Below, piece after piece: positions 8,789-10,967 of a stretch of DNA of 27,940 nucleotides (positions are counted from its first letter, which is position 1; each line of letters opens with the position of its first letter). The stretch covers positions 1 through 27,940 of IMG/VR virus record IMGVR_UViG_3300030332_002465. One strand, given 5' to 3'. The notes under the pieces were generated by a model, which was not told the origin of the DNA, ran no database searches, and saw only the letters and a list, made by a program, of their open reading frames with translations. This stretch comes from a virus. Taxonomy: Duplodnaviria; Caudoviricetes. A program made the position numbers and the translations under genes.

Positions 8789-8844
8789 GGGGCCAGTTTG
8801 GGCACTGGCACGCACAGCCGGAACGCGAATGGATTCGGGTGTTG
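8789..8844 (-). promoter_or_regulatory. Putative activator-dependent late promoter (P-I)
   Basis: CAACACCCGAA-N9-GTTCCG-N18-CAAACT-N6-ATG. Same architecture as at 16540-16595. Confidence 0.7.
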
Positions 8845-9027
8845 ATCAGGGGGAGGTAAAACCGGATTTCGGGGAGGCGTGAACAGGAGAATACCTTTTC
8901 ACGTTGTGCCTGCTCAAGTCTATAGCGTTAGAAGCGCGTTAGATTCTCCTACAGTCGTTGAAACGGATTTATCCGGCATGGTTGGGTGCCTCACAGGTCA
9001 GAATCGATTACAGGCGATCTGAGGCGG

Positions 9028-9513
9028 TCATTCAAAACCGCCCGACAGGAAGCGGCTGGCGATGTCCAGGATGTCGTCTTCGTCAGCTGGCCCAATACCG
9101 AGAAATGGCCGGGCCGGGATATCGCCCCAGGGGATGGGACCACCGCGTGCCGTCCTGCCATACTCGCCCTGCCTGGCGCCGAAGAAATGGGTAGGCGCTG
9201 CCGGGTGGTTGGTGCCGATCGCGGCAAAGTCTTTTCCGTAGTCGGTTACGATGGACGCGGCCATGATGCCACTGTCCTGCAGGATCTGGCCGCCTTGGCG
9301 TTCCGGGCGCAGTGCAAGCGTGACTGCAGACAGCGGATCCCAGGCGATGCCCGTTTCCGGATCCGACTCCGTGGAGAACGCCCGTTCGCTGGCATCGGCC
9401 ATCACGTCCGCGATCTCGCGCATGGCGTTGGCTGGCTCCGCCACACGGCGTAACAGTTGATCGAGGCTCTTCTGCACGTCCTCGTGGTTCAGTGTGATCG
9501 AAATGTCTGCCAT
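9028..9513 (-). CDS. Virion morphogenesis protein, Mu gpG-like
   Basis: WDPLS, ILQDSG, IGTN...HFFG and IPARPFLG motifs. Sits between F and I. Confidence 0.9.
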   Translation of the reverse strand: MADISITLNHEDVQKSLDQLLRRVAEPANAMREIADVMADASERAFSTESDPETGIAWDPLSAVTLALRPERQGGQILQDSGIMAASIVTDYGKDFAAIGTNHPAAPTHFFGARQGEYGRTARGGPIPWGDIPARPFLGIGPADEDDILDIASRFLSGGFE

Positions 9514-9542
9514 TGCGGCGTTTCTCCGTTGTTCGCTATACT
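9513..9542 (+). promoter_or_regulatory. Putative sigma70 promoter for the tRNA-like RNA
   Basis: TTGCGG (9513-9518), 18 nt, TATACT (9537-9542), ending 9 nt before the tRNA-like stem. Confidence 0.6.
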
Positions 9543-9551
9543 GAAGTCCTC

Positions 9552-9631
9552 GGATGGGCGTAAGCCTCAGGGGTAGAGCGGCGGGCGCAACGCGTCGGCG
9601 TGTCGCGGGTTCGAATCCCGCCGCCCATCCA
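9552..9631 (+). ncRNA. tRNA-like RNA with degenerate anticodon arm
   Basis: Closing stem GGATGGGCG/CGCCCATCC. Perfect T-arm GCGGG-TTCGAAT-CCCGC. D-arm-like GCCTCAGGGGTAGAGC. Ends in CCA. No canonical anticodon loop. Confidence 0.75.
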
Positions 9632-9641
9632 GATTCCCTTT

Positions 9642-10967
9642 CTAAAGCGCCCCTTCCACCAGCTCGTACTGGCTACCCAGCAGATCCGATGCCCGCACCT
9701 GGTACGCGTTGACCACCACATCCAGCGGTACCGGCTCACTCTTTGCCAGCCTGTACGGAGCATTAACAACCACCTTGTAGGCGGAGTCCTCCGCCGCATC
9801 GGCCACATAGACCAGGTTCTTCTTCACCTTGTCCCACAGCACGGCCTGCGGCTTGGCCATCAGGCGTGGCAGTTCCTGGTACAGCGCCAGCGGAAGCGCG
9901 ATGCCGGAATCCTGATGTTTCTGGCTGTCCGCGTGCATCAGCTGCTTCTCACCAATGACCAGCAGCCGGCTGGGCGCCTTGCCGGTACGCTGGAACACCG
10001 CGCTTGCCAGCGCCTCGGGCAGGAAGCCAATGGAGGCCAGGCCATGGCCGGCCCGGCGGTTGGCCAGTACGTCCTGCGCCCACTGGGCAAACTGTTCCTG
10101 GCGCAGCTCTGAGTTATTCAGGCTCTGGATGACCTGGCTTCTCAACTCCGTACTGCGCACCTGGCCCAGCTTCTGGGCAATGCCGGCATCCACACCGAAT
10201 GCGGCCGCGCCGGGATTGTAGGCCCAGCCCACGTCCGGGCTCATGGATGCCCCTCCAGGCAGGTTGACCACAGCGTGGTCCATGGTGATCACTTCGCCAG
10301 TCTGGAAGTTGGTACCCGCCTCGCGCTGCACCTGTTCGATGTAGTCCGCACCGTTTTCAACCGTTAGGCCTTCGCGCTCCACCTGGCGTTCCGTCAGGTT
10401 TCTAACGCGGCAGCGACAGCCCCAGCCGTTGGGCGGGTATAGGTATTGCCAGATTGGATCGTCCCACCGGAACACGCGGCCGTTCATCGCCCGATGGCTG
10501 GGCCGGGTGCGTGAGTCGATCACAGCGACGTACTGCCAGTAGGGTCGGGTTGATACCGATGCCAGCTGCCGGCGATACCGGCCGGCCATATAGGCCGTTT
10601 GCAGGTTGGTGCGGTAGATGGTCTTCAGCCGCCAGGGGCTGCCCAGTTGGACCTCCCGATCGTTGCCCTGGGCATCCTTCCAGGTTTCCTTGCCCCACCA
10701 GCCCTTGGCTTTGAGTTTCGGCGCCAGGCGTTTGGTGAAATCCCGCTCGGTCACACCCTCGGCCAGCGCCTCGTCCACGGCATTACGGATATCCTGCAGG
10801 ATGTCCATGCGCATGGCTTTGGCTACGGTGAAGGCGTTGGCATGGCTTGCGCCGCGTATTTCCTGCCACTGATCGCTGATCTGGTAGCCCTTGGAGCGGA
10901 AATAGGCTACCGCGTCCTTGGGCGCCATCTTCATGGCGGCCCGCAGGTCCACGTTATTGCTGGCCAT
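9642..10967 (-). CDS. MuF (gpF) minor head protein with C-terminal extension, probable PBECR-type nuclease fold
   Basis: MuF motifs RLKTIYRTN, DSRTRPSH and PPNGWGCRC. About 180 extra C-terminal residues (HADSQKH...LPRLMAKPQAVLWD...NLVY...KVVVN...VVNAY). The nuclease assignment is from recalled similarity only. Confidence 0.85.
   Translation of the reverse strand: MASNNVDLRAAMKMAPKDAVAYFRSKGYQISDQWQEIRGASHANAFTVAKAMRMDILQDIRNAVDEALAEGVTERDFTKRLAPKLKAKGWWGKETWKDAQGNDREVQLGSPWRLKTIYRTNLQTAYMAGRYRRQLASVSTRPYWQYVAVIDSRTRPSHRAMNGRVFRWDDPIWQYLYPPNGWGCRCRVRNLTERQVEREGLTVENGADYIEQVQREAGTNFQTGEVITMDHAVVNLPGGASMSPDVGWAYNPGAAAFGVDAGIAQKLGQVRSTELRSQVIQSLNNSELRQEQFAQWAQDVLANRRAGHGLASIGFLPEALASAVFQRTGKAPSRLLVIGEKQLMHADSQKHQDSGIALPLALYQELPRLMAKPQAVLWDKVKKNLVYVADAAEDSAYKVVVNAPYRLAKSEPVPLDVVVNAYQVRASDLLGSQYELVEGAL

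Follow-up and report, generated by a model that had tools for sequence, protein, structure and literature searches.

A tRNA-shaped RNA gene accompanies the predicted RNase domain of MuF head proteins in Mu-like phages

A Mu-like phage genome (IMG/VR record IMGVR_UViG_3300030332_002465) contains, between the genes for the minor head protein MuF (gpF, gene F) and for protein G, a gene for a transfer RNA (tRNA)-shaped RNA, located on the strand opposite to both (9552..9631, + strand, of the window, the whole stretch of 27,940 nucleotides (nt) analysed, positions 1 to 27,940 of the record). Comparison with relatives indicates that this RNA goes with an intact predicted active site in the C-terminal MuF-C domain of MuF, a putative ribonuclease (RNase), and that a variable arm of the RNA follows a hypervariable segment of the same domain. 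From these sequence patterns we consider it probable, at about 65%, that the RNA binds and blocks the predicted MuF RNase, providing allele-specific RNA immunity to a virion-borne RNase in the way of a type III antitoxin.

Results

A conserved RNA family with a tRNA-like elbow

A preliminary description of the window had noted a tRNA-like element in this gap, and the parts it named are in place: a closing stem of 9 base pairs (bp; 9552-9560/9622-9630), a T-arm GCGGG TTCGAAT CCCGC (9605-9621), a D-loop-like GGTAGAGC (9572-9579; D-arm ~9564-9579) and a degenerate anticodon arm, in whose place a variable arm (9581-9601) closes on a 3-nt loop (AAC). Folding of the lone sequence was not significant (z −1.88, 12 of 200 shuffles as good; opposite strand z −3.1). 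Because the single fold was unremarkable and a promoter scan was empty (see below), evidence beyond chance was taken from relatives, which we collected by a search with the C-terminal 182 residues of F (52 viral, 12 genomic and 16 metagenomic loci, plus genome samples).

The structural conservation expected among relatives was evident. From 19 F-G gap sequences aligned with MAFFT, RNAalifold recovered the same cloverleaf unaided, with 93% of 430 cells paired and 19 of 23 pairs compensatory across the 19 rows. None of 500 shuffles reached this level of pairing, a test that relatedness inflates, and slid-partner controls gave 36-52%. Compensatory changes occur in all four helices, indicating therefore that the RNA structure is under selection, and the excess of G-U over A-C cells (37 versus 6) assigns the RNA to the + strand, F being on the other. 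The elbow is invariant, with UA following the stem, GGUA as the D-loop motif and GGUUC-A as that of the T-arm. Where a tRNA has its anticodon arm, relatives have an arm of variable length that often has UUCG or GCAA at its tip, with no fixed 7-nt loop. The window element scored 62.6 bits with the resulting model R1, which includes the window row. Together, the alignments indicate that the F-G element is a member of a conserved RNA family with a covarying cloverleaf, in which a free hairpin replaces the anticodon loop.

We designated the form found in the window type 1; every match above 50 bits with its model lies downstream of F, in the opposite orientation. A type 2 with the same T-loop occurs in more distant loci, and for it an alignment of 27 rows gives 18 pairs, 10 of them compensatory (an earlier 12-row alignment gave 6 consensus pairs only); type-2 RNA is single copy in approximately 72 of 78 loci by T-loop count. 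A type 3, called by eye, differs in its 3′ loop.

We also considered whether the element is a true tRNA, decayed or unusual, or else the remnant of an integration site. In its favour, three of 13 loci narrowly pass the Rfam tRNA cut-off (29.6-35.6 bits), ARAGORN calls a tRNA in four of 45, and RefSeq labels the copies found between F and G in Escherichia coli "tRNA-OTHER" (162 of 5426 E. coli genomes match; the Sakai Sp18 prophage copy scores 79.5 bits). However, the four ARAGORN calls are discordant (Val, Ile and two undetermined), the compensatory changes indicate a structure maintained by selection, and there is no fixed 7-nt arm loop. In the window, ARAGORN made no tRNA call and Rfam found the tRNA-like domain of transfer-messenger RNA (tmRNA) alone, at 24.9 bits, under the cut-off of 47. 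The element has the D-loop GG and T-loop UUCRA of a tRNA cloverleaf. It lacks the 7-nt loop, U33 and 5-bp stem of an anticodon arm, and likewise the 7-bp stem, discriminator base and free CCA of an acceptor, the closing stem measuring 6-13 bp in the family. The letters of the reported terminal CCA are present, but not as a tRNA end: both Cs are paired in the stem and no discriminator base precedes them. Since, moreover, CCA occurs at the canonical tRNA position in none of the 19 relatives, and one base earlier in the window only, the window CCA is most likely due to chance. A CCA end may still be added after transcription. The earlier view that elbow and acceptor are kept while decoding is lost thus stands for the elbow and for decoding, but not for the acceptor. 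The window also encodes a Mu transposase and, to our knowledge, phages with this transposase do not use tRNA sites. The tRNA or remnant explanation is therefore largely refuted, and we give it hardly any credence.

A blastn comparison of the element against phages yielded weak matches to assorted tRNAs only. A published catalogue of small RNAs from E. coli prophages (PMC4104026) has, in the part available, a single Sp18 entry, at another place.

RNA presence follows the predicted active site of MuF-C

The relatives form two groups, with an F-G gap of approximately 100-160 nt or with F directly abutting G. Close relatives bearing the RNA all keep the motifs H-x5-H and N[ATV]Y[KR], whereas RNA-less close relatives do not, and in relatives without the RNA G abuts F directly. 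In the window, the first motif is HADSQKH (9915..9935, − strand), containing His345, the predicted catalytic residue in the N-terminal helix of PBECR domains, and His351; it is kept with the RNA and lost without it. The nearest relative, L001, is 93% identical over the first 324 residues, with MDASSPTS for MHADSQKH, both His residues lost and no gap.

Among 107 loci, 61 had RNA and His, two RNA without His, one His without RNA, and 43 neither; 29 of 136 loci were left out of this count for a short open reading frame (ORF), a frameshift or less than 200 nt of flank, L050 and L136 by hand. With 50 representatives (44 dereplicated at 90%, plus L131, L109, L067, L116, L001 and L065 added by hand), the respective figures were 32, 3, 1 and 14, and an intact-looking domain without RNA was thus rare (one of 33 His-bearing representatives). 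On a tree built without the nuclease part, the RNA state changed 10 times; over 8 independent pairs, a mean of 7.0 agreed and 0.2 disagreed (median p 0.016, range 0.016-0.070). Neither RNA model matched any His-less, gap-less locus at this place. Of the three representatives with RNA that lack the predicted catalytic His, L052 and L109 keep the second His and L107 has Arg, which is allowed at this place for one PBECR family (PMC5512222). The RNA also persists beside broken or truncated F genes (L102, L125, L132, L135, L199, L229 and L272).

Searches starting from the RNA gave the same association. The D-arm motif of type 1 occurred in 16 stretches of IMG/VR, all 16 facing an intact H..H..N domain; three of them are contigs already in our locus set. 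The type-2 motif had at least 120 matches and, among the matches listed, 117 face the domain, two an apparent tail remnant and one is an orphan, with His present in 76 of the 78 readable domains. The orphan (L167:1478-1561, 85 bits) lies between genes that look primase-like and Mor-like.

The preliminary description had expected the RNA to be rarer beside MuF genes lacking the extension. This was borne out in 27 MuF loci drawn by PF04233 alone, in which the RNA accompanied five of five MuF-C loci and none of 15 short or non-BECR MuFs, the remaining seven being PBECR2 or PBECR3 fusions. The contrast of extended with short MuF proved, however, to be the wrong split. Phage Mu has the MuF extension but neither His nor RNA, and the right contrast is therefore that of intact with degenerate MuF-C. 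Together, our results indicate that what the RNA accompanies is an intact MuF-C/PBECR site rather than an extended MuF as such, and that the pairing of RNA and protein is real and widespread.

The RNA arm tracks a hypervariable protein segment

The last core strand of MuF-C is followed by a hypervariable segment of 11-17 residues; in the window, this strand contains Asn420, at the place of the PBECR Ser/Thr, and the segment spans residues ~422-432 (together 9672..9710, − strand). In 57 distinct single-copy type-2 loci, the partial correlation (r) of the RNA arm with this loop was 0.43 (0 of 300 permutations), and with the core, taken as the 55 residues before the loop segment, −0.06. For the closing stem, one strand of which is encoded between arm and loop, the values were 0.69 with the core and −0.10 with the loop. 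Type-2 pairs with like core and unlike loop shared the arm in 0 of 366 cases, and the adjusted Rand index between type-2 clusters was 0.83 when arm was compared with loop and 0.20 when it was compared with core; of 5000 within-core permutations, 4 came out at least as high as the former value. A single core can carry many loops, with six of 15 loop types found on core cluster 10. A coarser division of the segments gave no separation of arm and tail (partial r 0.14-0.20); the cut at the last strand was chosen after that coarser table had been seen, and the separation appeared only then. These comparisons, new here, indicate that the variable arm of the RNA tracks the hypervariable protein segment, not the protein core. 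Additionally, eight loci contain two or three different RNAs in a row (L104, L156, L158, L168, L235, L238, L253 and L221).

We also asked whether arms are copies of anticodon loops, as some contain CUGUAAA; the idea was dropped because most arms have no such match.

Two further explanations bear on these data. Y RNAs tether the protein Ro60 to a nuclease, and the F-G RNA might likewise be a positive cofactor that the nuclease needs, as a scaffold, specificity subunit or co-packaged partner. Such a cofactor would account for the co-loss with His and for the arm-loop matching as well as an antitoxin would. It offers, however, no reason for allelic diversification on one core or for stacks of two or three different RNAs, and it leaves the predicted RNase without an immunity gene. 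Furthermore, loss of the RNA should then often precede loss of His, which is rarely seen. We regard a cofactor role as unlikely. The second, a decoy of host tRNA-targeting defence nucleases or uncharged-tRNA sensors, lying beside F by synteny only, was the other function suggested in the preliminary description. The kept elbow, the lost decoding and the orphan copy in L167 would fit it. It explains neither why the RNA is lost almost exactly with the phage's own His motif and is missing from the 15 non-BECR MuF loci, nor why it tracks the phage's own protein loop, and we consider it highly improbable.

A candidate promoter for the RNA

The promoter attributed to the RNA, TTGCGG-N18-TATACT, was confirmed in its letters and 18-nt spacer (predicted sigma-70 type; 9513..9542, + strand; TTGCGG at 9513-9518, overlapping the G start codon, and TATACT at 9537-9542), but a consensus promoter scan returned 0 sites. 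Thirteen of 18 loci have a −10 hexamer with at least five of six matches at the corresponding position, 12-21 nt ahead of where the 5′ strand of the stem ends, as compared with two of 72 upstream windows, four of 18 on the other strand and a mean of 2.3 in shuffles, none of 2000 reaching 13. The −35 is weak and variable.

Four of eight contigs from RNA libraries overlap the element (X13, 9559-9709; X10, 9607-9784, its last 25 nt only; X2, 9191-9689; and X5, 9566-10464), and X11, X8, X12 and X9 do not. We did not use them as evidence of transcription because their strand, ends and level are unseen and the runs were chosen with this stretch.

The convergent layout raises the alternative that the promoter acts in cis, with leaky F expression in the lysogen silenced by an antisense transcript or by transcriptional interference, and the tRNA shape serving only to stabilise or process that transcript. 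A scan called no terminator between the element and F in the window, and three of the RNA-library contigs (9559-9709, 9566-10464 and 9607-9784), strand unseen, run from the element into F; silencing, too, would have a purpose only where the nuclease is active. Conversely, in L004-L010 and L013-L017 the RNA and the F stop are separated by a hairpin that has a T-run (by eye), and neither the matching of arm to protein loop nor tandem copies with different arms are explained by cis action, which we therefore judge to be quite unlikely.

The MuF C-terminal domain

The MuF protein of the window (441 amino acids (aa); 9642..10967, − strand) consists of a Phage_Mu_F domain at residues 58-188 (PF04233, 105.9 bits) and the C-terminal MuF-C/PBECR-type predicted RNase, which is approximately 40% identical to the C-terminus of Mu gp30. 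Among aligned family members, 33 of 41 match PF18819 (MuF_C) at E ≤ 0.01, and Pfam finds MuF_C and PBECR3 only. The model of the domain, with a predicted local distance difference test (pLDDT) of 96, shows a helix at 51-57 and then strands at 86-135. A VIA fold search was led by BrnT (Z 4.8, root-mean-square deviation (rmsd) 4.3, 76 aligned), the tRNase colicin D (Z 4.8, rmsd 3.1, 81 aligned) and RelE-type toxins; a profile search of the PDB with the domain gave no match. His345 occupies the N-terminal helix, as in PBECR domains, and is conserved across the family; its active-site role follows from the description of these domains (PMC5512222). Thr or Ser is found at the Asn420 place in distant RNA-bearing members. 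MuF-C would be a BECR-type RNase, probably directed to tRNA. Among the papers listed for PBECR, we found no experiment on MuF-C.

Layout of the locus

The window has the genes of a Mu-like phage (transposase, Mor, portal, MuF, G, protease I and capsid T), and PF04233 lies between portal and G, which puts the MuF domain, together with the extension at its C-terminus, within the head genes. Gene G (phage virion morphogenesis, PF05069, 106.2 bits; 9028..9513, − strand) flanks the RNA gene. As reported earlier, the F-G gap is 128 nt (G start at 9513, F stop at 9642-9644), and 10 nt separate the end of the RNA element from the F stop. The next same-strand gene after F is G, without a small immunity ORF downstream of F in the window; a 90-aa frame at 9536-9808 overlaps F. 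The G-I gap (8816-9027) is the place of the gyrase cut site in Mu. A marine metagenome contig (L074) encodes a C-terminal domain 100% identical to that of the window, with the same RNA.

Other RNA types and insertions

In type 3 (L089:2446-2551, L067:1108-1204, L116:1402-1500, L108:1404-1502 and six more), a GUGGCG-like loop replaces the T-loop and could base-pair with a 5′ loop resembling CGCC; both loops are changed together in L116 and L108. This pairing is possibly a kissing-loop substitute for the tRNA elbow. Own-loop complementarity was above shuffles (0 of 2000) but barely above cross pairs (9.4 versus 8.7), and the kissing loop therefore remains a suggestion. A DNA pattern search for type 3 gave no match. 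The F-G gap of L221 holds three unlike tRNA-shaped elements (L221:1310-1670), of which the one closest to F has a −10-like hexamer to itself.

MuF fusions with PBECR3 and PBECR2 likewise have, just past the MuF stop, convergent structured elements preceded by a −10-like hexamer (L274:683-784, 16.9 bits and E 0.027 with the type-1 model; L285, L286, L287, L291, L301 and L302 by eye). In L297, a PBECR2 fusion, the last-strand motif looks degenerate and there is no gap. The rule linking RNA and domain may extend to other PBECR families.

In type-2 loci such as L097, L098, L153, L165 and others, extra small genes lie between the RNA's promoter and G, and the F-G gap in these phages is also a moron site. 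At L115:605-1402, a convergent ORF of 265 aa without Pfam match occupies the RNA's place, with a remnant resembling a T-loop left behind. This ORF might be a moron, or its protein might stand in for the RNA. The decayed prophages L130, L126 and L136 have an array of short repeats (GGAATCAGTGATCGG-like) in the RNA's place, just past the F end.

Discussion

The antitoxin proposal of the preliminary description receives strong comparative support from the co-loss of RNA and His, the RNA-first matches beside the domain, and the matching of arm and loop. Under this proposal, MuF-C would be an active BECR-type RNase, probably tRNA-directed, that is made late and carried by the head into the next cell. 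The RNA would be transcribed from a promoter of its own and would not depend on the late operon, and therefore a lysogen would hold the RNA in advance. Its D/T elbow would dock as that of a tRNA does, while the arm presents no anticodon loop; the RNA would thus be an uncleaved or slowly cleaved substrate mimic. Contact of the variable arm with the variable segment beside the last core strand would confer allele-specific immunity, with other alleles covered by stacked or orphan RNAs. After loss of His, the RNA would become dispensable and F and G would close up, as in phage Mu. Only tentatively, with slightly more doubt than confidence, do we extend this to a general principle in which a virion-delivered RNase is blocked by an arm-matched tRNA mimic, extra RNAs form an immunity archive, and PBECR2 and PBECR3 follow the same rule with other RNA folds.

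Several observations weigh against the antitoxin proposal. The co-loss and the arm-loop matching are equally expected of a required cofactor. The RNase assignment is weak, since the window domain matches PF18819 at 23.8 and 26.8 bits, below the cut-off of 27.6, and has Asn420, as does its clade, in place of the last-strand Ser/Thr of PBECR domains; Foldseek found no match for two domain models, and the top 20 VIA rows, mostly of RelE, colicin D or CdiA type and without ToxN, reach a Z of only 3.8-4.8. In 40 type-1 loci, the clade of the window, the arm correlates similarly with loop (0.38) and core (0.31), the stem tracking the core only. Block recombination may explain part of the arm-loop match because the two lie approximately 50-70 nt apart. 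The arm matching the loop type of L253 sits in the distal, not the adjacent, RNA copy. L115 keeps both His residues without an RNA match, having lost the YK/YR after Asn; L130, one of the loci left out of the count, keeps His with a repeat array instead of the RNA; and L167 has no nuclease gene within the 2.1 kb available. Lastly, many type-2 loci are closely related, and the RNA calls on the tree comprise 24 of 35 model matches, with many rows used in building the models, and 11 of 35 (type 3) made by eye.

Type III antitoxins are described as short repeats in tandem that precede the toxin gene and share its transcript (PMC12373285). As in ToxIN, AbiQ, CptIN and TenpIN, and in AbiF/RCd22, a structured RNA lies here beside a predicted RNase gene and direct neutralisation is proposed (PMC12373285). 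Unlike in those systems, the RNA is usually single and tRNA-shaped, its gene follows the protein gene on the other strand and has a separate predicted promoter, and the predicted BECR-type domain is fused to a virion protein. By analogy, the system would work alike, although it lies outside the described type III layout.

The tRNA-like domain of tmRNA and the Y RNA YrlA are bacterial tRNA mimics, with which the element shares a D/T-loop elbow without decoding, as well as the weak tmRNA match. It differs in having no CCA and no tag reading frame, and in being tied to a predicted phage nuclease domain. No Ro60 gene was found among 32 window proteins scanned. Several unlike RNA folds accompany one protein family, in either orientation and some of them with terminators, in the DUF3800-associated motifs (Weinberg et al. 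2017, PMC5737381). RNA types 1-3 are likewise arranged around one protein family, but it is another family, and no DUF3800 Rfam family was matched.

Our loci resemble MuF polymorphic toxins in the N-terminal MuF, the toxin-like C-terminal extension with a variable tip, the location in the head module of a temperate phage, and a factor directly after the gene. A small same-strand immunity ORF follows 89.4% of 191 MuF toxin genes, and the available text of that survey leaves the proteobacterial Ct_MAD MuF extensions open (Jamet et al. 2017, PMC5576092). Here, the immunity slot is instead occupied by an RNA gene on the opposite strand. Polymorphic toxins have stacked immunity genes, and the stacks of two or three RNAs recall them. 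Mu gp30, a PBECR/MuF-C relative, is the His-less, RNA-less form, unlike that of the window. Neither Iyer et al. 2017 (PMC5512222) nor a 2026 preprint on BECR (10.64898/2026.08.28.747851) mentions an RNA partner for PBECR/MuF-C in the portions available. In agreement with the preliminary description, we found no account of the pairing in the literature; supplements of structured-RNA screens, which possibly list the motif uninterpreted, lay outside this search.

Novelty thus rests on the element falling outside its nearest families; its presumed action has a precedent in type III antitoxins, of which it may become a new class. If the proposal is true, it would describe a tRNA mimic acting as an antitoxin and an RNA-based, allele-specific immunity to a polymorphic toxin, and we found no described case of either. 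Natural pairs of matched and mismatched alleles, together with dead variants, allow a direct test. It would also settle, for proteobacterial phages, whether the extensions of MuF are toxins and why an immunity gene is missing beside them, explain the inert look of the gpF extension of phage Mu, and give a function to the "tRNA-OTHER" element of E. coli.

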